IMG/VR virus record: IMGVR_UViG_3300012983_000039
Coordinates: 1 to 64,000 of that record
Reading direction: 5' to 3' (one strand)
Length of the DNA stretch: 64,000 bases
Source: a virus
Lineage: Duplodnaviria; Caudoviricetes
Shown here piece after piece: positions 27,186-40,194 of the stretch (its first letter is position 1; every line of letters starts with the position of its first letter). The notes beneath the pieces were generated by a model. It saw nothing but the letters and a program-made list of their open reading frames with translations, made no database searches and was not told the DNA's origin. The translations under genes and the position numbers were made by a program.

Positions 27186-29696
27186 AGTATATTCAGAAAA
27201 CGTCAAAAAAGATTACTTCTAATTTTTTAGAAGAACTTTTAATTGACAGAGGTATTTTGAGAAACGAGGTGGAGTTTAAGGTTAACTTTTTTAAGCCATC
27301 AAAAGAAAATTTAGAGGATTTTCGACATCTTGATAATATAGAAGAAGGAGCGGATTTACTCGAAAAGCATATTTTTAATGGAAGTAAAATTTATTTAGTA
27401 GTGGATTGAATGCTTGGGTTCACTTTAAATTCCTTAAATTGCGGGGACACCCTTAGAGCCTTAATAACCAAACATTAACAGCGATGTTAATGCGGCGGCT
27501 AGTAACGGAGTCGGTATGGTAAAATCATTAAGGATTGGGCAATCAAGCGCATCGAAATTTCTCTCTGAGAAAGACGTTCAACGACTATAATAGGAACATC
27601 AAAAAAACGATGAAGGTATAGTCTACTCCCTATCTGAAATTTTATAAAATCTATCCATTAATTTTACCTCTACTTATGAAATGGTTTGTTGGTTAAAAGA
27701 CATATTCGGTTTTGGTTCTATAGTAAAAGAAAAACGCCGAGAAAAAATATATTATTTTAATTTTGGTGGTAATAAACAAATTGAACTTTTTTATCATTTA
27801 TTATATGATAACGCGACAGTCTGGATGGATAGAAAATATAATAAATTTCAAGATTTTTTTAAATACGTCGAAAGACGGGGTATAAAAGCCAGATATGGAC
27901 GGCTTCACAAGTAGTGCCATTCTATACAACTATTTAAGGCAAAACTATATCGACTATAATTTTGAACTTTCATATCATATTCCAGAAGGAAAAGAACACG
28001 GTTTGGAAGTTCTAATGCCACTTCTTCAAAAAGAAAAAATATGTGATTTAATTATATGTCCAGACTCATCTTCTAATGATGAAGAGTTCCATAAAATTCT
28101 GAGTGAAATGGGCTATGAAATTTTGGTTATTGATCACCATTTAGCTTCGGGATATAGTCCTTATGCTACAGTAATCAACAACCAACTTTCAGAAAAATAT
28201 CAGAATAAAGAATTATCTGGTGTAGGAGTTGTATATAAATTACTCCAATTACTTGATGAAAGAAACGATACACGAGACGCAGATAATTATTTAGATTTGG
28301 TTGCCGCTGGCATATGCGCGGATATGTGTCCTCTTTTAACTTTGGAAAATCGCTTTATTTCAGAGTATGGTTTTTCTCATTTATATAATAGTGGATTAAG
28401 AGAATTAATTAAATATCAAGCTTATTCAATTTTAGGTGTGGCGGCAAGTGAGATAACAGATTGGAGTGAAGTTAAGGTTAATCCAATTGATATTTCTTTT
28501 TATATAGCTCCTTTGGTAAATGCTTTAATAAGAGTAGGCACTACAAAAGATAAAGAAACTTTGTTTGAAGCTTTTATTAATGGAAGGAAATTGGTTGACT
28601 CAACAAAAAGAGGACATAAAGGAGAATTGGAATCTATTGCCGAACAAAACGCAAGAAATTGTGCTAATGCTAGAGCCAGACAAAATAAGGAAAAAGAAAA
28701 AGCTACAGAATTACTCGATATCCAGATTTTTAATGATAATTTAGATGAAAATAAAATTCTTATATTAAATGCTGACGAGCTGGAAACTCCTAATACTTTA
28801 ACTGGACTATGTGCCATGAATGTTGCGGCGAAATATAAAAAGCCAATTTTGTTAGGAAGGACTACACCAGATGGACAGTATCTTAAAGGTTCTATGAGAG
28901 GACAGAATGGTTCGGAACTAAAAGATTTTAGAAAATTTTTGTTAGATAGCGGATATATGGACTACGTTGAGGGTTAACACCATGGCCCGAAAATACTTTT
29001 ACCATTAATCAATGGGGTCGAAAAAAATTCGGCTAACGAGGAAAGCTAAGTCTAAAGGATATGCTAATCTCGTGGGAAAATTAAACCTGTAAAGACTATT
29101 CTCTTTGAGAAGTACAACTACTATTGATACGTAGTTGGAAACGGGTATTCTATCAGTTAGATAGTAAGAAATAGTCTGTACCATTGGAAACAATGGACTA
29201 TACACATGCTAATGCTTCGGGTTTTAGTCTAAAAATTTCAGACATACCTAAGCTCTATGATTATGCTAATAAACAACTCGCTAATATTAATTTTAACGAA
29301 GGTTTTTACGAAGTTGATTTTATAGTTAATAACAATTGTCCATATTTAAAAGATTTAATTTTTGAACTAGATAAAGGTAAGTCAATTTATGGACAAGATT
29401 GTGATGAGCCACTTATTGTAGTAGAAAATATATCTGTTGCGCCGGCTAACATATCTTTTATAGGAACTAATAAAGATACTCTTAAAATTTCAAGTGGAGA
29501 TATGACCTTTATTAAATTTAAGGCAAAAGAATTAATAGAACAACTTCAAGATTTGTTAAAAAGTTTAAAATCAACTGATAAAATTAGCTTTACAATAATA
29601 GGAAAAGGAAATATTAATACTTGGTGCGGCAGAAAGACAGCTCAAATTTTTATAGAGAGTTTAAAATTTGAAAAGGTTAATAAATATACATTTTAA
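27182..29696 (+). CDS. recJ: RecJ-like DHH exonuclease, spliced join(27182..27406,27889..28974,29205..29696), about 600 aa
   Basis: Splices restore VVD|PDMDGFTS and VEG|HANASG; EHG, IDHH, LSGVGV, GSMRG. Confidence 0.88.
27407..27888 (+). mobile_element. group I intron 1 in recJ with a degenerate LAGLIDADG C-terminal remnant (27681..27914 frame)
   Basis: P1 GUGGAU/GUUCAC; AAAUUGCGGGGA, UUCAACGACUA, AAGGUAUAGUCU; terminal G; remnant ..LYDNATVWMDRKY. Confidence 0.88.
28975..29204 (+). mobile_element. group I intron 2 in recJ (230 nt), terminal nucleotide A
   Basis: P1 GGGU/GCCC; P10 CAUG/CAUG; core close to the nrdD intron; P9.0 GUA/UAC then A. Confidence 0.87.
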
Positions 29697-29708
29697 GGAG
29701 GATTTATA

Positions 29709-29897
29709 ATGGGAGAAATAATGAAGAGAACAGAAGAAATAAGAGTTGAAACAGAAGAAGAAGCAATGGCACTTATTGAAAGTTTTAAGGAAAAATCTAA
29801 GACTGAGGGATATGAAATTGTTTCTTATTGTTCAACACATAAAGTAAAAAAAGATGATGATTTTTATATTGTTAAAATTATTATGAAATGGTGCTAA
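29709..29897 (+). CDS. hypothetical protein
   Basis: 62-aa ORF with AAGGAGG RBS. Confidence 0.65.
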   Translation: MGEIMKRTEEIRVETEEEAMALIESFKEKSKTEGYEIVSYCSTHKVKKDDDFYIVKIIMKWC

Positions 29898-29904
29898 TTT
29901 ATTG

Positions 29905-29951
29905 AAGTCAAGAGTTTAACTCTTGACTTTTTTTATGAATTATGATATAAT
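29905..29951 (+). promoter_or_regulatory. fused terminator hairpin / promoter
   Basis: AAGTCAAGAG..CTCTTGACTT plus T-run; TTGACT(29923)-17-TATAAT(29946) with TG. Confidence 0.78.
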
Positions 29952-29979
29952 TATATTATAAAATAAAAGAGGTGAGAAA

Positions 29980-30843
29980 ATGGCAAAAAGAAAAGAGTTA
30001 AATGAATATTATCGTAATAAGTTTGGAAAAGATTTTTCAAGTTCAACTCTTAGTAAATGGGGCAAAGAAGGGAAGATTAGGCGAGAAATCCTGCCAAATA
30101 AAACTTATGATTGGAATTTTGAAGATTTTAAGAATATTGTTGATTCAGAACAATATTATAAAAAATTAAAAGCAAGGAAACAAAAGCCACAAGATTTTAT
30201 TGGAAAAACAAAAGGATATTTATATATCAAAGGGATTGTACCCGTGGAAGAACGGAATCAAGAATATCTTGGAACAATGATGTATTGCGATTGTTTAAGA
30301 TGTGGAAAGAAGAATATTCAAGTTAGATTCACATACTTGTCTGATAATGGAAATTATCATCAATATGGCTGTGGATGTGAGAGAAAAGAAAGAGCTTTTT
30401 TAGCCAGTGCAAGAAAAGGACTAACATCAGAACTATTATTTTCTTATAAAGACGATTTTGAAAAGTTTCTTTTTATTCATAAAGCATTGGTGGGAAATAC
30501 AGACAAATATTATACAACTTGTGCAATTGAAGAATATATACAGACAATAGATTATTTTTATAACAATGAACAATTTAACCAATTATATCTTTTTTTGGGA
30601 AAAAATAAAAAAGAGAACACTTTTTATGACTGGGGTAAACCAAGCTTAGACCATATAATCCCTAAATCAAAAGGTGGCGGACATAATAAAGAGAATTTAC
30701 AATTTTTAACTGTTTTTGAAAATTTAGCAAAAAGAAATATGACATGGGCTGAGTGGGAAAATTTTAAAGAAAAAACACATATAACGTCAGATTATTTTAT
30801 CGAAAATATTATTACGAAGAAGGGAGGGGTGGATTATGAATAA
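29980..30843 (+). CDS. free-standing HNH homing endonuclease
   Basis: SLDHIIPKSKGG...NLQ....EN..K; CDC.RCG..GCGC. Confidence 0.8.
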   Translation: MAKRKELNEYYRNKFGKDFSSSTLSKWGKEGKIRREILPNKTYDWNFEDFKNIVDSEQYYKKLKARKQKPQDFIGKTKGYLYIKGIVPVEERNQEYLGTMMYCDCLRCGKKNIQVRFTYLSDNGNYHQYGCGCERKERAFLASARKGLTSELLFSYKDDFEKFLFIHKALVGNTDKYYTTCAIEEYIQTIDYFYNNEQFNQLYLFLGKNKKENTFYDWGKPSLDHIIPKSKGGGHNKENLQFLTVFENLAKRNMTWAEWENFKEKTHITSDYFIENIITKKGGVDYE

Positions 30844-33800
30844 TATTGCAAGATTTGATTGTCATTCACATAGCGAATATTCAAACATCCGCTTACTTTG
30901 ACAGTATTAATCGTCCTAGAGATATGATTTTAACAGCTCATAAATTAGGTATGAAAGGTATAATTTTAACAGACCATGAATGTCTATCTGGTCATGTAAA
31001 ATGGCTGAACGAAGAAAGAGACTTAAAAGAAAAAGGGTTGATCCCTCCTGAATTTAAATGTGGTTGTGGCAATGAAATTTATTTAGTGAATGATAGAAAT
31101 AATATTCAATGTTATTGGCATTTCATTTTGGCAGCAAAAAACACAGAAGGACATAGAGCTTTAAGAGAATTAAGTTCAATTGCATGGCGTAATAGTTATT
31201 CATCAAGAGGTTTAACAAGAGTGCCAACTCAAAAAAATGAACTCAAAGAAATTGTTAATAAATATCCAAATACTTTAATTGCTACGAATGCCTGTCTGGG
31301 CGGTGAGCTTCCGCATTTAGTAGAAGAACTTGTAAAAGCAGAAAAAAGAAATTCAGAAGATGAAATAATTAAAATTAAATTAGAAATAGTGGATTTTTTA
31401 AACTATTGTCTCGAATTATTTGGAGAAGATTTTTATATTGAAATCGCCGCTGCCCCAACAAAAGAACAAAAACTTTTTAATCAAAGAGTGAAAGCAATTG
31501 CGAAAGCTTATGGAATAAAGATAGTAATTGGTTCAGACGCTCATTATCTTACTTCGAACGAAAGAGAAGTTCATAAAGCTTATCTTAATTCAAAAGATGG
31601 GGAACGAGAAGTAGATAATTTTTATTATTATGCTCATATGATGGATAATGAGGAAGCTTATAATAATATTTCAGATATTTTTACAGAAGAAGAATTTAAA
31701 CAAATCTGTGAAAATTCTATGGAAATTTATAATAAAATTGGGAGTTATGATATCTTTAGAAATCCTATTATACCAGAAGTTCAGGTAAAAGATTACCCTC
31801 CATTTACTTGTGAAACAGATTTTACTGGGGGCTATAACCCAGATTGGTATTTCCCCACAATTGATGATTTATTGTGTAGTCAAGAAATTCAAGAAAGATA
31901 TTGGATTAATGAATGCTTAAACGCATTGCGTGAAAAAGATTTATACAATACAAAATATCTTGCTCGTATCGAAACCGAAGCGAAAGTAATTAAAACCATC
32001 GGAGAAAAACTTGGAGATTGTTTGTTTAAATACTTCAATACTTTTCAACATTTTATTGATTTATTTTGGAATTGTGGGTCTCTTGTTGGACCCGGAAGAG
32101 GGTCAGCAGTATGTTTTTTATCAAATTATTTATTGGGTGGACAATAATAGTAACGCCCATTAACATCTAATTATTTATTAATAATGTTATTTAAGCAGCT
32201 TAAAGTGTAAGAAACACATTCTTAAATAGCATCGGGGAAGCCTAAATCTTTACAAATGAGATATGGTAATCCCGAACCAAGTGTTAAATATTCAAAAAGG
32301 GAAAATAAAATAAAATAAAAGAAGGAGGTGAAAGATATATATATGTTTTGTTATAGAATAGTAAATAATATAAATAAAAAGGAATATATTGGAATAACTG
32401 CTGATTTTGAAAGAAGAATGAAACAACATAAAAATCAAAAATCCAATAGTTTGATTCACAACGCTATCTTAAAGTATGGTAAAGAAAATTTTACTTATGA
32501 AATTTTAGCTTCGGAATTATCTATAGAAGAAGCTGAAAAAATGGAAATTGACTTGATTAAAAAAAGAAATACTTTAGCTCCAAATGGATATAATTTAGCA
32601 AAAGGCGGATTACATGGCGGCTCTAAAATAAAAATAACAGATGAACAAGTAGCTTATATAAAAAATAATCGAAATTTGCCTTTATATGTTCTTTATGATG
32701 AATTTTCAGATTTAATTTCTTACGGGTATTTTAAAGAAATATATAAAAATAATGTAAGACCAGACATTAAGCCTGCAGTAGAAATGTATCCATACAATTT
32801 AGAATTTTCAACTCAATTTACTAGAACTAAATTAACTTATCAAAATGTTGTAGATATAAGAAAAGCTTATGCCAATATGATAGATTGGAAAGAGATATAT
32901 CCTAAATATAAAGACAAAGTTGCCGAATCTACATTTTTCGATGTCTACAGAGGTCAAAGCTTTATGTTGATAATGCCAGAAGTATTTTCAGAAGAAAATA
33001 AAAAGAAACATTTTTCATTATCTCGTTCTGGTTCTAAAAATGGTAATGCTAAATTAAAAGCTGATGATGTTAAATTAATACGAAAAATGCATGAAGATAA
33101 GAAAACAAATAAAGAAATTAATGCTTATTTCCCTCAAGTATCAATTGATACAATACGTGATATAATAAATTATCGAACTTGGAAGAATATTTAACAAAGG
33201 TGTATCGACTATCCTAGTTAATAGGAGTAGAGCTACTATTGATACTTAGCTCGAAATGGTGTTCTTTCTATAAACAAATAGAAAGTAAGATATAGTCAGG
33301 TCTTATAGAAATATAAGAATAACCGATTACGCAACTAGACCCAGTTAAATGGGGTTTACATTATTGGAGATTTTTAAACGAAGAAAGAATAGAGCTACCT
33401 GATATTGATATCGATCTTGCTCCGTCAAAGAGAAAAAAAATTTTTGAGGAAATTAGAAAAGAGCGTGGAGAATTAAATTGTATTCAGGTTTGTACTTTCG
33501 GTACAGAAGGGACTAGATCTAGTATAGCAGCTGCTTGTAGAGGATATAGAAGTTCAGAATATCCCAATGGTATTGATAATGAAATTGCTTTATATTTAAG
33601 TGGATTAATTCCTAATGAAAGAGGTTTCTTGTGGTCAATAAAAGAAATGGTTTATGGAAATCCAGAAAAAGGTAGGAAACCAAATGAAACATTTATAAGA
33701 GAACTCAACAAATATCCCGGACTATTAGAAATTATTGAGTCAATAGAAGGATTAGTGTGCCGCAGAGGACAACACGCGTCTGGTGTAATTTTCTATAACT

Positions 33801-36800
33801 CAACTCCTTATGAGACGAATGCGATAATGAGAAGCCCAAATGGTGATTTAACAACTCAATTTGATCTCCATGACTCGGAACAGTTAGGGGACGTTAAATA
33901 CGATAAGAAAATAATTCTTCAATAAATTAAAAGTGAGGTGACTTTATGTCCCCAAGAAAAAATTTCCCTATAGAAACTATTGAAGAACTTTTATTTAAAG
34001 GATATAATATTACTCAGCTTGCAAATCATTTTCAAACAAGTAGACAAACAATGTCAAAATTTTTAAAGCCAATTCTTTAGTTACAAATAAAGAGAAACAA
34101 TTGATTAAATGTAAAGAAGTAAGTAGTCAATATGTTTCAGAACTTTATCTTGAAGGAAAAACCATTAAAGAAATTTCTATTCTACTTGGCGTAAGTAATA
34201 CAGTTATAAAGGATCGATTAAAAGTAGCTAACTGTAAAACAAGAACAAATTCAGAAGCACATAAAAAATATTTTGAAGATTTTCGATACTTTGACTCTAT
34301 AAATACCTATGATAAAGCCTATTTATTGGGTTTTATTTGTGCAGACGGGTGGGTGTCTCGTAGAAATGAATTAGGAATTTCACTTGCTTTAAAAGACAAG
34401 GGAATGGTGTATTGGTTTAAAAATCAATTAAAGACGGATAAGCCAGTAATTGAAAAAGAAAACAGCGCGACTTTAATAATTCAAAATGAAAAAATTACAC
34501 ATCAATTAAATCAATATAATATAATTCCAAACAAAAGTTTAACACTGGACATTAAAACAGTGATAAATAAGGCCAATATTTCAAGAGAATTAATTCCAGC
34601 ATTTTTATTGGGTTATTTTGATGGAGATGGTGGAATTTATAAAACAATTACTAAAAAAGGGTGCGTTCAATATAGTTGTTCAATTACTGGCACCTATGAA
34701 ACTTGTTTGTATTTTAAAGAATATTTTGATAACATTGGTTTCTTTACTAAAAGACATCAAGATGATAAAAATAATTATACTTATCAAATTGGTGGGAGAA
34801 ATCAAGTTAAAAAAGGACTGGGTAAATTATATCAGATAAAAGATAAGTTAAGTTTCTATTATGAAAGAAAATATAATATTTATTGTGAATTATGACTAAG
34901 GTCCTAATATACAGTGATGTATATTTGAAAGGGATTGAACCTGATTACTCAAGGGTGTAGAAAGAGCGTTTTAGTTTTTAGTAGGAAATGACTAATTAAT
35001 CTTTTTGCTAACTGGGAAACCTGACCAAGTTATGTTGAAGGCAATCCAGTGCCAAGCTCACTTTGAGAAGGTCTATCGACTATCCGCTGAAATGTGGTTA
35101 GAGGTGAAGATGAGTTACACCTCGAAGTGGTCCCCTCTTATGTTTATATAAATGTAAGATGAAGATATAGTCAGTGCCATTAGAAATAATGGAATAACAC
35201 GTTGCTTGTGACTGAAATAAGTGATAAAATTACAGCTTGTATTGAACTTTTGGTTGAAGATAAAATACTAGAAAATAATCTAAGTTTTAGAGAAATTTAT
35301 AACAAATATCTACACCCTGAAAAGATAGATACTACTGATGAAAAAATTTGGAATGCTTTAGGTGAAGGAAATATTATGGACGTTTTCCAATTTAGTTCAA
35401 AAGTTGGTTTAGCTACAGCTCGACAAATAAAACCTAAAGACCCTATTCAAATGACATCTGCTAATGCGTTAACATTGGCGCTTACACAGCTTTACTACTA
35501 ATCAGTAGGGTACATTGAATAATGTGCTAACGGGGAAGCCTGAAGCTCCTGCCGTGAGGTATAGGTATGGTAATCCCGTGGGAAATATCAATTCATCTCC
35601 ATACAGAGGTGATTTTATGTGAATAGGAAATATTAAAAAATTGAGAAAATTATTTCCAGATTTAGTATTTCCTATTCGCAATAGATGAATTGATAACTCC
35701 TGTAGAGACTATCCCGAGTGAGATTGGGAGTACGATTACTATTGATACGTAATTGGAAAAGGCGTGCTTTTTACAAAGAGTAGAAAGTAAGAGATAGTCC
35801 AGACCACAAACAATTATTATAATTGGCAGGGAAACTTGTAGTGGTATGTAATGCGATTAATGGGAGAAAAAGGAAAAGAAAGTCCAATAGATAGATATTG
35901 TCGTTTAAAAGATGATATGTCATTGTGGTATAAAGAAGTAAGAAGTAAAGGTTTGTCTGAAGAAGAAATAAAAATTCTCGAACCATATTATCTTCCCAAT
36001 TTTGGTGTTCCATGTAGTCAAGAAGATTTAATGGAAGTTTGTCTGGATAAAAATATTGCCAATTTTACATTGAGTGAAGCTAACGCCGCCAGAAAAATAG
36101 TTTCAAAAAAATTAGTAAATAAAGTTCCTGAACTTAAAGAAAAATTTATCTCTCAGTGTGGTAGTAGAAATTTGGGTGAATATGTATGGCAAACAGTAAT
36201 GGAGCCGCAGATGAGTTACGCGTAAAGCACTTGCGCCCTTATACAGTAATGTATATTGAACAACTTCGTGAATTGCTGGAAAATCTGAAGCCGCTGTTGT
36301 GAAACATAGGTATGACAATCAGCAGCCAAACCGATTTAGCCAATCGGAAGGTTCAACGACTATCCTATTTAGGAGTAGGCTTTATGCCGAAGTGCGAAGT
36401 ATCAACACAGAGCTAATAAATAAAAATAAAAGGAGGTGAACTAAATTATGAAAAGAATATCAATAGAAATAGAGAAGAGGATATGTAATGATTATTCGAC
36501 AGGTAAATATTCATCGAGAGAATTGGGAGAAAAGTATAGTCTATCTAAATCAACAATATTAAGAGTATTAAAAAGAAACAATATTGAAGCGAAAAATAGA
36601 AGACTAGTAAATACAAATTTGGACATAAATTATTTTAAAGAAATAAACACAGAACAAAAAGCATATTTTCTTGGTTTTATTTTTGCGGACGGTTGTGTTT
36701 CAAATGAAGAGCTTTTTATTGATATTAATGAAAAAGATATTGATATTTTAGCTAAATTTAGAGAAGAAATAAATAGTCAAGCAAAAATATCAACAAGAAT

Positions 36801-38745
36801 AAAAGGAAAAAGCTCTATGAGTAGAATTGTTATTAAAAATAAAACATTCACAGATCATCTATCTAAATATGGTATTATTAAAAATAAAACTAAAAATACG
36901 AAACATCTTCCATATGAAATAATCCCAAAAGAATTATGGAGACATTTTTTAAGAGGACTGATCGATGGAGATGGATGGATTACAAAAACAAAGGAAAATA
37001 GATATCATATTGGATATATCACTCAATATAATTCTACAGCATTGGATTTTATCTATATGATGAATGAACTCATAGAAGATAAATGGAAAAACAGAGTAAT
37101 AAACAAAGATAAAAAATATTCTGTTGTTCAAATACAAAAATCTGAGCAAGTAAAACAGTTGGCAACTGTTTTATATATGAATAGCAATATTCATCTTAGT
37201 CGTAAATTTCAATTAGCTCAAGAAATTTTAGACTCAAAAAGTTGATAAAGATATAGTCTGGACTTTATGGAAACATAAAGCTCGAAAGAGATCACTATAT
37301 GTGATAACACATTCGTTGCAAAACCTCATGCCTTAGCCTATTCATTTACTGGTATACAAACTCTTTATCTAGCAACAAATTTCCCCGAAATCTATTGGGA
37401 TTGCTCTTGTTTGATTGTAAATTCTGGTGGAGCAGATTTGTTAGATATTGATGATATAGAAGAAGAAGATAATGAAAATGAAGAAGATGAGGCATTAAAG
37501 AAGAAAAAGAAAAAGAATAAAACAGTTAACTATGGAAAAATAAGCACGGCAATTGGTGAAACAAAAGCAAAGAAAATACAAGTATTACCACCCGATATAA
37601 ATAATTCATCTCTTATATTTAAACCAAGTTTAGAAAAAAATGCTATTCTCTATGGACTTAAGGGATTAAATCGTATAGGTTCTCAATTAGTATTACAAAT
37701 TATTTCTAATCGTCCTTATTCTTCAATAGAAGACTTTCTAACTAAGGTGAAAGTAAATAAACCACAAATGATTAATCTAATTAAAGCCGGCACTTTTGAC
37801 GAACTTTATCCAGATAAAACTCGTTATGAAGTAATGGATTTATATATAGATTTAATTGCTGATAAGAAAAAAAGAATTACTCTACAAAATATGATGATGT
37901 TAATTCGATTTGATTTAATTCCACAAGAACTTGATTATGAGCGCCGCCTCTTCAACTTCAATAAGTATTTAAAAGGTTTTAAATCAGAAGATGATTATTT
38001 ATTGGACACAATAGCTATGAACTTCTTTGAAAACAATTACGATACTTCTCTTCTAAAAGAAATTCTAGTAGACGATGAAGGAAAAACCGGTGTTATTTCT
38101 CAAAAAACTTGGGATAATATTTATAAAAAGGGAATGAACCCATTGAGAGATTGGATTAAAGCTAATCATGATGAGATTTTAAATACTCTTAATCAAAAAC
38201 TTTTGAATGAAGCGGCGGAAAAGTATACTGAAGGCAATATAAGTAAATGGGAAATGGATAGTTTAAGTTTCTATTATCACGAACATGAACTTGAAAATTT
38301 AAGAAAAGACTTATATGGAATTTCAGATTACTCTAAACTTCCTAAAGAACCTGAAATTGATAGAAGTTTCTTAACTAAAGATGGAAGCAATATTACTATG
38401 TATAAAATTACACGTATTGCCGGCACAGTAATAGATAAGAATAAAGATAAGGGATTGATTACTTTACTTACTACAGATGGTGTAGTTTCAGTTAAAATTT
38501 GGAAAAACCAATTCGCCGCTTGGGATAAACAAATTTCTGAAAGAGATAGTGAAGGTAAAAAACACGTTATTGAAAAATCTTGGTTTACTAGAGGAACTAA
38601 ACTAATAATAAGTGGAGTTAAACGTGAAGACAGTTTTATTCCTAAAAAATATAAGAGTTCTGAGTATCCATTGTTTGAAAAAATAATAGAAATTGATGAT
38701 AAAGGTTTTATTATCAATTCAACAACAGAAAGAGCAGAAGAGTAA
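30836..38745 (+). CDS. dnaE: DNA polymerase III alpha subunit: join(30836..30898,+1 shift,30900..32138,33326..33904,35202..35469,35849..36223,37316..38745), about 1317 aa
   Basis: PHP HSHSEYS..TDH..GNE..DAHY; GPGRGS; junctions LLG|ITQLDP, KYD|LLVT, NA(L)MR, YA(F)AKPHALAY; PDIDID; HASG; PPDIN. Confidence 0.93.
32139..33325 (+). mobile_element. group I intron 1 in dnaE
   Basis: P1 UGGGU/GCCCA; UAUCGACUA/AAGAUAUAGUCA; terminal G; carries a GIY-YIG ORF. Confidence 0.9.
32328..33194 (+). CDS. intron-encoded GIY-YIG homing endonuclease
   Basis: CYRIVN..KEYIGIT..RRMKQH..E..NGYN. Confidence 0.87.
   Translation: MKDIYMFCYRIVNNINKKEYIGITADFERRMKQHKNQKSNSLIHNAILKYGKENFTYEILASELSIEEAEKMEIDLIKKRNTLAPNGYNLAKGGLHGGSKIKITDEQVAYIKNNRNLPLYVLYDEFSDLISYGYFKEIYKNNVRPDIKPAVEMYPYNLEFSTQFTRTKLTYQNVVDIRKAYANMIDWKEIYPKYKDKVAESTFFDVYRGQSFMLIMPEVFSEENKKKHFSLSRSGSKNGNAKLKADDVKLIRKMHEDKKTNKEINAYFPQVSIDTIRDIINYRTWKNI
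33905..35201 (+). mobile_element. group I intron 2 in dnaE, endonuclease gene inserted in the P1 loop
   Basis: Ribozyme core lies entirely after the ORF (34900-35201); IGS GUCCUA pairs with exon UACGAU; P9.0 GUG/CAC, terminal G. Confidence 0.88.
33946..34895 (+). CDS. intron-encoded LAGLIDADG endonuclease, split by a -1 frameshift near 34062-34068
   Basis: GAGGTG RBS and ATG 33946, stop 34080; -1 frame continues to YLLGFICADG and FLLGYFDGDG. Confidence 0.8.
35470..35848 (+). mobile_element. group I intron 3 in dnaE (379 nt, no intact ORF)
   Basis: P1 GCGU/GCGC; P10 CAUUG/UAAUG; GCUAACGGGGAA..AAUCCCGUG; AGAGACUA/GAUAGUCC; terminal G. Confidence 0.9.
36224..37315 (+). mobile_element. group I intron 4 in dnaE
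   Basis: P1 GCGU/GCGC; GAAUUGCUGGAAA, AAUCAGCAG, UUCAACGACUA, AAGAUAUAGUCU; ORF inside P8 (UAUCAAC..GUUGAUA); terminal G. Confidence 0.9.
36448..37245 (+). CDS. intron-encoded LAGLIDADG homing endonuclease
   Basis: YFLGFIFADG and FLRGLIDGDG. Confidence 0.9.
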   Translation: MKRISIEIEKRICNDYSTGKYSSRELGEKYSLSKSTILRVLKRNNIEAKNRRLVNTNLDINYFKEINTEQKAYFLGFIFADGCVSNEELFIDINEKDIDILAKFREEINSQAKISTRIKGKSSMSRIVIKNKTFTDHLSKYGIIKNKTKNTKHLPYEIIPKELWRHFLRGLIDGDGWITKTKENRYHIGYITQYNSTALDFIYMMNELIEDKWKNRVINKDKKYSVVQIQKSEQVKQLATVLYMNSNIHLSRKFQLAQEILDSKS

Positions 38746-38748
38746 TGG

Positions 38749-38776
38749 AAAGACACAAGTTAATCTTGTGTCTTTA
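38749..38776 (+). terminator. hairpin after dnaE
   Basis: AAAGACACAAG..CTTGTGTCTTT. Confidence 0.65.
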
Positions 38777-38797
38777 CTTTAAAGGAGGAAAATAAAA

Positions 38798-39256
38798 ATG
38801 GTTGAAATTAAAGATGGAAATTTACTTGAAGCTAAAGATGTAGATATTATTCTCCATCAGGTTAACTGTATGGGAGTTATGGGTGGCGGCATAGCAAAAC
38901 AAATAAAAGGAAGATATCCTTATGTTTATGAGGAATACTTAGCTTTCTGCCAAGAAAGGACAGATAGACTAGGAGAAATTTTAGTTTGTGAAACGCCAGA
39001 CTTTTTTATAGCAAATTGTTTCGGGCAATATGGCTATGGAACTTACAAAACTTTTACAGATTATGAAGCCTTAAGAGAGTGTTTTAATAAAGTAGCAAAA
39101 CTGGTAAAAACAATGGAGAAAGACTATAATCGTCATTTAAGAATTGGGATACCTTATAAAATTGGTTGTGGCTTGGCTGGAGGAGATTGGCAAATTGTAT
39201 ATAGAATAATTTGTGAAGAATTTAATAAGCTTGACGTTATTCTTTATAAGTTATGA
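38798..39256 (+). CDS. macrodomain (ADP-ribose-processing) protein
   Basis: GNLL, HQVNCMGVMGGGIA, PYKIGCGLAGGDW. Confidence 0.88.
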   Translation: MVEIKDGNLLEAKDVDIILHQVNCMGVMGGGIAKQIKGRYPYVYEEYLAFCQERTDRLGEILVCETPDFFIANCFGQYGYGTYKTFTDYEALRECFNKVAKLVKTMEKDYNRHLRIGIPYKIGCGLAGGDWQIVYRIICEEFNKLDVILYKL

Positions 39257-39267
39257 GGTGAAAAGGA

Positions 39268-40194
39268 TTGGCAAGTATATGTTTATATGATATTGATTTT
39301 TTACATGGAGCAAAGTTTTCAATTAATTTAGAATTAATGAAGATTTTTAATTATTATTATACACAAGGGCATAAAGTAAGGTTGGCAAAGAAAAATGATA
39401 CAGAAGAGTGGTATGACCAAAAAATCTTTTTTCTTCAAAATCCAAAATGTCGTTTTCCTCAAAAATTAAAGTTAACTGGTGATAATATTACTTTATATGG
39501 GTATGGTTTTTATAAAGACTTTAAAGATTTAAAAAAAGAAATCAAGGCTGTGCCGCCCAGCTTTATGGTTTATGATACTAGCTATGACCTAATAAAAAAT
39601 AAGAATATCTATGAAAAGATAAAAGACTCTTCTTTAATAAGAGTAGAAAACAGAGATTTCTCTTATTATAATCCAAATAAAAAAGCTTTATATGTAGCAG
39701 ATTACGATTTCTTTTCAGTTTCTAATAATTTTGAATTTTTAGAAGAATATTCTAAACATAATATAAGTTTTCTTTGGGGATTAAGAGCAAAAGATAAGGA
39801 TACTTTTTTAAAGCTATTTCGTTATTTACATAACGTAAATAGAAGAATTGTTATTGATTTTGATTATGATGTTAACTTCTTTAAAACTTATTACAATGAA
39901 AACATAATGTTTTTATTCGATAGTGAAAAAGAAAAAGATTTATTAAAAATAATTCAAATGATTTTATACGCAAAAAATAAAAATCAAATACTATTTTTAG
40001 AACAAAGCTCTAAACCTATTTTATCTAATTTATCTAAATGGAGTTCTTCAAAAGATAAAATTTCCTTTTATGATTATTGTATTAATAATAATAAAAAAGA
40101 TTGGTTTATTAATAACTTTACTGATAGAAAAGAATTAAGACTTTTACTTAGACAAAATCCACAGTTTTTTGATACTCAAAATCTTGACTTTTAA
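39268..40194 (+). CDS. hypothetical protein
   Basis: 308-aa ORF with GAGGTG RBS; N-terminal YDID..NLELMKI. Confidence 0.65.
   Translation: MASICLYDIDFLHGAKFSINLELMKIFNYYYTQGHKVRLAKKNDTEEWYDQKIFFLQNPKCRFPQKLKLTGDNITLYGYGFYKDFKDLKKEIKAVPPSFMVYDTSYDLIKNKNIYEKIKDSSLIRVENRDFSYYNPNKKALYVADYDFFSVSNNFEFLEEYSKHNISFLWGLRAKDKDTFLKLFRYLHNVNRRIVIDFDYDVNFFKTYYNENIMFLFDSEKEKDLLKIIQMILYAKNKNQILFLEQSSKPILSNLSKWSSSKDKISFYDYCINNNKKDWFINNFTDRKELRLLLRQNPQFFDTQNLDF

Follow-up and report, generated by a model that had tools for sequence, protein, structure and literature searches.

The sequence CUU-UGA-C is the textbook recoding signal of essentially one gene, bacterial prfB, and all CUU-stop +1 frameshifting cases in the RECODE database are prfB genes (PMC10885494). 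We describe the same core in an unrelated essential gene, the DnaE-type DNA polymerase gene encoded in a 64,000-nucleotide stretch (hereafter the window; positions 1 to 64,000 of the record IMGVR_UViG_3300012983_000039) of a tailed-phage genome. The source is a 91-kb IMG/VR virus record with 30% GC that is 56% complete. The polymerase site shares with prfB the slip codon CUU, the in-frame UGA, the C after the stop, a weak A/U-rich codon in the E site and a position early in the gene (codon 18-24 in this family, codon 26 in Escherichia coli); the inferred mechanism, in which tRNA-Leu would re-pair from CUU to UUU against release factor 2 (RF2), is also the same. The differences are equally clear. 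The prfB site is preceded by an internal Shine-Dalgarno sequence (AGGGGG), whereas positions -9 to -4 of the polymerase site are occupied by AUCCGC in the window and by AUYCGY in relatives, so that the absence of this stimulator, already stated in the original prediction for this locus, holds. Furthermore, prfB is autoregulated, whereas the product here is a PHP/Pol III alpha-type polymerase, not RF2, which leaves no autoregulatory loop. Finally, the polymerase site, unlike prfB, shows a patchy distribution, a linkage to a homing-endonuclease-like gene and a distinct G-rich initiation region. The published surveys and reviews that were searched contain no description of a CUU-UGA site in a polymerase gene.

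The other system that invites comparison is gene 60 of phage T4, with its translational bypass and the MobA homing endonuclease (Bonocora 2011, as summarised in PMC5009743). In the account given in that summary, an essential gene with a replication-related function is interrupted at a conserved position and has a free-standing endonuclease gene as its neighbour, translation repairs the interruption, the presence of the interruption is polymorphic among relatives, and the proposed role is protection from the nuclease; all these features have counterparts at the polymerase locus, where the translational repair and the protection are likewise proposed. The T4 ribosome hops over a 50-nucleotide gap, whereas the break in the polymerase gene amounts to one base, is compatible with a +1 slip, and is associated with an HNH-type nuclease gene located upstream of the start codon; because the gap is a single base, no long-range hop is needed. 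There is also a resemblance to the 'savior' indels (a class defined in PMC5009743), in which a DNA indel that is useful for another reason is offset by frameshifting and the non-shifted product is useless. Unlike these, the polymerase indel coincides with a canonical slip core of high efficiency and is accompanied by conserved features on its flanks, which suggests that efficient shifting is selected for. From comparative sequence analysis, we consider it quite probable that the polymerase gene carries a translationally compensated one-base indel, bridged by a prfB-type +1 slip, that is part of an HNH homing-endonuclease cassette in the manner of T4 gene 60 and MobA.

The elements at the start of the polymerase gene are as follows.

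30822-30834, plus strand: G-rich ribosome-binding motif GGGAGGGGUGGAU (family form GAGGG-N1-3-G[G/A]AU)

30836-30898, plus strand: frame-0 leader of 21 codons with the HxH start of PHP motif I (PHP profile positions 1-11 come from this leader)

30887-30902, plus strand: recoding site with the codon layout AUC CGC UUA CUU UGA C

Frame 0, starting from the ATG at 30836, comprises 21 codons that end with ...HSHSEYSNIRLL and are followed by TGA at 30899-30901. The heptamer CTT TGA C occupies 30896-30902, with the P-site slip codon CUU at 30896-30898 and the first +1 codon, GAC, at 30900-30902, from which the +1 frame (DSINRPRDM...) is open to 32147. The layout and coordinates that the original prediction gave for the ribosome-binding site (RBS), the ATG, the short stop-terminated frame and the continuation as DSINRP are thus confirmed. 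As in the P site of prfB, the sequence CTT T (30896-30899) allows re-pairing on UUU, and, as in its A site, the in-frame UGA is followed by C (30902). The CTT T is invariant among the shifted relatives in the unbiased, protein-based sample (7 of 7). This phage uses TGA as a functional stop codon, at the end of 15 of the 53 long open reading frames (ORFs), so RF2 must compete at the slip site.

The extra T falls within PHP motif I, after the HxH residues and before the conserved Asp. A Pfam search started with the +1 product alone yields a PHP match that begins only at profile position 12, with 62.4 bits, whereas a search in which CTTT is read as one Leu yields a match that begins at position 1, with 77.3 bits (a gain of 15), so that the read-through product covers profile positions 1-160 as a single continuous domain, which carries on in the +1 frame from the GAC at 30900 without any indel. 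The homologous YorL protein of phage SPbeta contains the sequence ...SNIRLLDSTN in one frame; hence the junction LL|DS is exact, and the in-frame gene differs by one T. The window gene is a DnaE/YorL-type polymerase with the full set of modules (PHP, DNA_pol3_alpha and HHH_6 in Pfam) and 36-41% identity to SPbeta YorL and to the polymerase of Enterococcus phage EF1. It shares with the phage DnaE-like PHP polymerases the family, the N-terminal motif and the frequent interruption by introns or endonuclease genes; the polymerases of the cultured phages SPbeta, EF1 and Mammaliicoccus phi127, unlike that of the window, are in frame at this position.

The break was followed through two sets of relatives. 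The first consists of 80 loci retrieved from viral contigs by a protein-level search with the +1 product and is unbiased with respect to the site pattern; the second comes from searches with a degenerate pattern in which only CTTTGA and the amino acids on either side of it are fixed, and it hence selects for the site. In the first set, six of the 80 loci, 38-65% identical to the window, are broken at the same residue, five of them with CTT TGA C/T and one with CTT CGA T, and the closest relatives (L012-L014, 76-77% identical) are in frame. In the second set, polymerase N-termini account for 31 of the 36 matches in viral contigs, all 35 matches in metagenome contigs, including human-gut and giraffe assemblies, and both matches in prokaryote genomes, which are metagenome-assembled genomes (MAGs) of a rumen Erysipelotrichaceae bacterium and of a Clostridium. 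The recurrence of the pattern at polymerase N-termini is far beyond chance. Altogether, the CTT-TGA-[C/T] break occurs at one and the same residue in about 45 distinct polymerase genes, which come from more than 25 assemblies (rumen, human gut and the two MAGs). A nucleotide search of 50,697 cultured-phage records detects neither a close relative nor a copy of the site. The comparison that had been proposed as a test of the original prediction, a search for CTTGAC in relatives, gives a divided answer: the nearest relatives are in frame, but the roughly 45 more diverged genes carry exactly the same extra T. On balance, the claim of a prfB-like CUU-UGA-C +1 site, as opposed to a stray T, is strongly supported by this comparison.

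Many of the broken genes continue with intact +1 frames of 1256-1344 codons. The leaders of the shifted genes diverge between clades (e.g., MKRFECHSHSHY..., LLQDKDFVHLHVHSEY... and MTTTNLRLDYHCHSSL...); all of them keep HxH and SNIRLL, with varying codons, such that Ser is encoded by both TCN and AGY. That these residues are kept despite the turnover of codons is understandable only if the leader is translated and becomes part of the polymerase, and the conservation indicates that this short segment is under selection at the protein level. On the polymerase tree, 10-13 changes of the shift state are counted.

Two of the sampled loci show variants of the site. The locus with CTT CGA T in place of CTT TGA C (L029:2966-3040, IMGVR_UViG_3300045988_159916) has the same special RBS; its frame 0 continues for four codons past the site to a TAA, so that a +1 shift would still be required, possibly at CUU followed by a slow CGA codon, or else this is possibly a recent mutant. 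L028, a sister locus that is nearly identical to it, is in frame. The locus L053:1-140 (IMGVR_UViG_3300026549_000326) is in frame at LLD and has another break two codons earlier, where HSHSEYS is followed by a 5-nucleotide insert, TAACC, that opens with a stop codon, and then by AAC ATC CGC TTA CTT GAC.

Codon choice around the break was compared between 27 distinct shifted and 57 in-frame sequences, and associations were additionally assessed with ten phylogenetically independent contrasts between shifted and in-frame genes. The Asp codon that follows the break shows a GAC:GAT ratio of 23:4 in shifted against 15:42 in in-frame sequences, so that 23 of the 27 shifted sequences contain UGA-C, a weak RF2 context. 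The Arg codon of shifted sequences is CGC in 17, CGT in 8 and CGA in 2 cases and never AGR, compared with AGR in 21 of the 57 in-frame sequences. The E-site Leu is encoded by UUA (24) or UUG (3) and never by CUN, and the Ile codon is AUC or AUU and never AUA. The window site uses CGC, ATC and GAC, which in this phage account for 2% of Arg, 7% of Ile and 23% of Asp codons, respectively. The G-rich motif GAGGG-N1-3-G[G/A]AU, at a variable distance from the start codon, is present in 21 of the 23 shifted rows and in three of the 53 in-frame rows. In the independent contrasts, the RBS motif goes with the shift by 8.8:0 (p ~0.004), CGY by 6.3:0 (p ~0.03) and UUR by 5:0 (p ~0.06).

Directly upstream of the polymerase gene, the window contains a nuclease-like gene to which the break is linked.

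29980-30843, plus strand: HNH homing-endonuclease-like ORF of 287 amino acids (Pfam HNH, PF01844, E-value 4.5e-5), the last codons of which overlap the RBS and the start codon of the polymerase gene

Relative to the in-frame loci L012 and L013, the segment 29963-30834 is a clean insertion of about 870 nucleotides, with homology over 29694-29962 and again from 30835 onward. HNH homologues immediately adjoin the start of the polymerase gene in 12 of 24 shifted rows versus one of 55 in-frame rows, and an adjacent HNH gene goes with the shift in independent contrasts by 5.0:0.1 (p ~0.06). The association between the HNH gene and the break is real but partial, and the HNH tree roughly mirrors the polymerase clades. 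In close pairs of shifted and in-frame genes, the flanks are 90-97% identical, whereas identity falls to 50-83% in the patch between the RBS and the site, with the diverged patch ending within some 20-45 nucleotides of the slip site; in pairs with 90-97% identity downstream, the leader is only 56-64% identical. This is the footprint that would be expected of repeated double-strand-break repair at the site. An adjoining free-standing endonuclease gene, its co-occurrence with the break and a conversion tract, the hallmarks of the T4 gene 60/MobA arrangement, are therefore all found at this locus. A recent transfer of the whole patch among shifted genes was considered and rejected: their leaders are 74% identical, the same as those of in-frame genes. 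Because the shifted leaders are not unusually alike, the shared site and RBS motif are taken to be maintained by selection and not just co-inherited. In the nearest in-frame relative, a different ORF of 294 amino acids abuts the polymerase start (L014:2000-2970); it belongs to a family that is also found in L057 and L070, is not HNH-like by BLAST and has no counterpart in the window.

On the most economical reading of these comparisons, the extra T is genuine and ancient, interrupts a conserved target sequence and has been exchanged repeatedly. A ribosome that holds peptidyl-tRNA-Leu on CUU, with UGA in its A site, would slip by one base, from CUU to UUU, and then read GAC, so that the full-length polymerase would be made only via the +1 slip. 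A weak UUR codon in the E site, the AUY-CGY codons before it and the G-rich RBS would be kept in place of the internal Shine-Dalgarno sequence of prfB. The break would be one end of a small mobile patch that extends from the RBS to the slip site and adjoins the free-standing HNH gene; the patch would most likely persist by altering the nuclease target in the polymerase gene, with frameshifting repairing the expression. Under this scheme, the nuclease is expected to cleave the in-frame allele, and the break would protect from the cut.

A more specific version of this scheme is that the RBS itself takes over the role of the prfB helix. The RBS strand GAGGG..G[G/A]AU could pair with AU[C/U]CGY at positions -9 to -4, behind the paused ribosome, and thus replace the Shine-Dalgarno helix as the +1 stimulator; the efficiency of frameshifting would then be coupled to the occupancy of the initiation site, and the module would have been spread by the homing endonuclease as an immunity device. 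We regard this elaboration as rather doubtful. The window sequences GGGGUGGAU (30826-34) and AUCCGCUU (30887-94) are able to pair with each other, in a helix that appears in the minimum-energy fold. The variable base of G[G/A]AU tracks the third base of the Ile codon, GGAU occurring with AUC and GAAU with AUU in all 22 shifted rows tested, and further metagenome sequences obey the same rule. As regards pairing with the RBS of the same gene, the Ile and Arg codons of shifted genes come close to the optimum, with a median of 1.5 of 18 variants better, against 10 of 18 in in-frame genes. The broader proposal that synonymous codons maximise RBS pairing over all four codons was rejected, a median of 40% of variants pairing better; the pairing falls short of the maximum owing to the retention of UUA in a place where CUC would be the best partner. 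There is precedent for such an effect, given that an upstream duplex or hairpin abutting the E site can mimic the Shine-Dalgarno duplex and stimulate the +1 shift at CUUUGA on 70S ribosomes (PMC6321510). The duplex between the RBS and the site is accordingly a possible, not an established, stimulator. Ribosome collisions caused by the strong RBS were also considered as a stimulator of the slip, and this idea was dropped because a high ribosome load lowered prfB-type shifting in reporters (Smith et al., PMC6815119).

Several observations weigh against the compensated-indel cassette or against its proposed stimulator. Sites of the prfB type that lack the internal Shine-Dalgarno sequence are known to shift far less efficiently. 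An HNH neighbour is absent from half of the shifted genes, so that the link to the nuclease is only statistical, and in one locus, L085 (2295-3050), an HNH gene abuts the start of a polymerase gene that is in frame, the only such case. The preference for GAC is not significant in independent contrasts (5.1:1, p ~0.22). With regard to the duplex, the covariation between G/A and C/U comprises only three independent contrasts (p 0.25), RNAalifold applied to 23 shifted leaders finds no consensus structure, the fold of the window is no better than those of shuffled sequences (z -0.57), and in most sequences the duplex is weak, at -5 to -8 kcal/mol before the loop penalty. Moreover, if the only role of the very strong RBS were to raise the level of shifting, this would sit uneasily with the reporter results on ribosome load cited above. 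As regards L085, the residues at its site are altered to SNTRFRDAI, and the nuclease target may have been changed there by substitution instead of by a frameshift.

Among the alternative explanations, the one closest to prfB biology is that the site is a sensor of RF2, selected so that polymerase output rises when the RF2 activity of the host is low, as in prfB autoregulation. The CUU-UGA-C sequence is the prfB core, with a favoured C after the stop, and the use of TGA as a regular stop in this phage means that RF2 competes at the site. Against this reading, the state flips 10-13 times among close relatives, the nearest of which lack the break, and its occurrence follows a selfish nuclease gene and a swapped leader patch; with a product other than RF2, there is also no feedback to be exploited. 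We therefore consider a sensor role unlikely. The proposal in the original prediction that polymerase synthesis is tied to host RF2 is not supported as the reason for the site and survives only as a mechanistic implication, inasmuch as RF2 competes with the slip.

An alternative of a different kind is that the locus encodes two products, a free 21-residue peptide and a polymerase that starts inside the +1 frame (e.g., at the TTG at 30846) and either lacks the HxH strand or borrows it. The +1 frame is indeed open from 30840 and contains this TTG; among shifted relatives, though, start codons in the +1 frame upstream of the site are not conserved, the conservation of HxH in frame 0 makes sense only if it is joined to the following Asp, and Pfam shows one continuous domain, all of which renders two separate products highly unlikely. 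That the polymerase is a pseudogene killed by a frameshift mutation is hardly plausible either. Frame 0 does comprise only 21 codons, and a stimulator like that of prfB is lacking, but +1 frames of more than 1250 codons are intact in many lineages, the break is always at one site, the leader retains the metal-binding motif with synonymous turnover, and the five blocks into which the window gene is divided are collinear, in tblastn searches, with a full, uninterrupted homologue of 1286 amino acids in locus L108:

30900-32138, plus strand: polymerase block 1, the rest of PHP and the start of the Pol III alpha NTPase domain (Pfam PHP and DNA_pol3_alpha; residues 1-408 of the L108 homologue)

33326-33949, plus strand: polymerase block 2 (tblastn; L108 residues 409-614)

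35205-35471, plus strand: polymerase block 3 (tblastn; L108 residues 603-691)

35848-36222, plus strand: polymerase block 4 (tblastn; L108 residues 691-815)

37318-38745, plus strand: polymerase block 5, HHH_6 and the C-terminus (tblastn; collinear with L108 over 37318-38739; L108 residues 817-1282; Pfam HHH_6)

Four-base decoding, in which a special tRNA-Leu whose anticodon loop is enlarged would read CUUU without slippage of a normal tRNA, would yield the same protein and is barely conceivable: no tRNA gene is found in the whole 91-kb record, itself only 56% complete, the hosts span Erysipelotrichaceae and Clostridium MAGs, and the preferences for the stop codon and for a weak termination context are in keeping with slippage that competes with release. 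A sequencing or assembly error, i.e., one spurious T in a TTT run that is a single base away from CTTGAC in an incomplete metagenome assembly, can effectively be dismissed because some 45 distinct sequences, drawn from more than 25 independent assemblies, contain the same base, and the RBS and the codons show changes that are correlated with it.

If the compensated-indel interpretation is correct, the core of the prfB signal operates in many gut and rumen phages in the absence of the Shine-Dalgarno stimulator, and these genes provide a natural test set for other drivers of +1 shifting, namely the E-site codon, the upstream context and the possible duplex in cis. The locus would also represent a second kind of cassette that combines a selfish nuclease with a translationally repaired interruption, beside the long-isolated T4 gene 60, which suggests that recoding sites may arise as immunity scars of homing endonucleases. 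In practical terms, gene callers will truncate or split such polymerases, so that annotation pipelines for phages should be aware of the site.

The blocks of the window polymerase are separated by gaps, most of which contain further candidate mobile elements.

32328-33194: GIY-YIG ORF (Pfam), in the gap between blocks 1 and 2

34101-34895: LAGLIDADG ORF (Pfam), in the gap between blocks 2 and 3

35472-35847: ORF-free gap between blocks 3 and 4

36448-37245: LAGLIDADG ORF, in the gap between blocks 4 and 5

An Rfam search of the region 29000-39500 detects no group I intron model at an E-value of 0.01 or better, so that the assignment of these gaps to introns follows from the collinearity of the blocks alone; the intron cores within 32139-37317 would be either divergent or broken up by the ORFs. 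A different kind of irregularity is seen in one of the in-frame polymerases (L044:2925-3010, IMGVR_UViG_3300037400_001561), where TAG replaces the Glu codon of relatives (MAKRF-TAG-VHSHS) in a frame that is otherwise open for 1328 codons; this phage could recode amber codons, or the TAG could be a nonsense mutation. In Enterococcus phage EF1 (L001:3069-3560, MF001358.1), the polymerase is also split, with an annotated HNH homing endonuclease between two coding sequences annotated as 'DNA polymerase III alpha'. As a family, these polymerases are a general hotspot of selfish elements.

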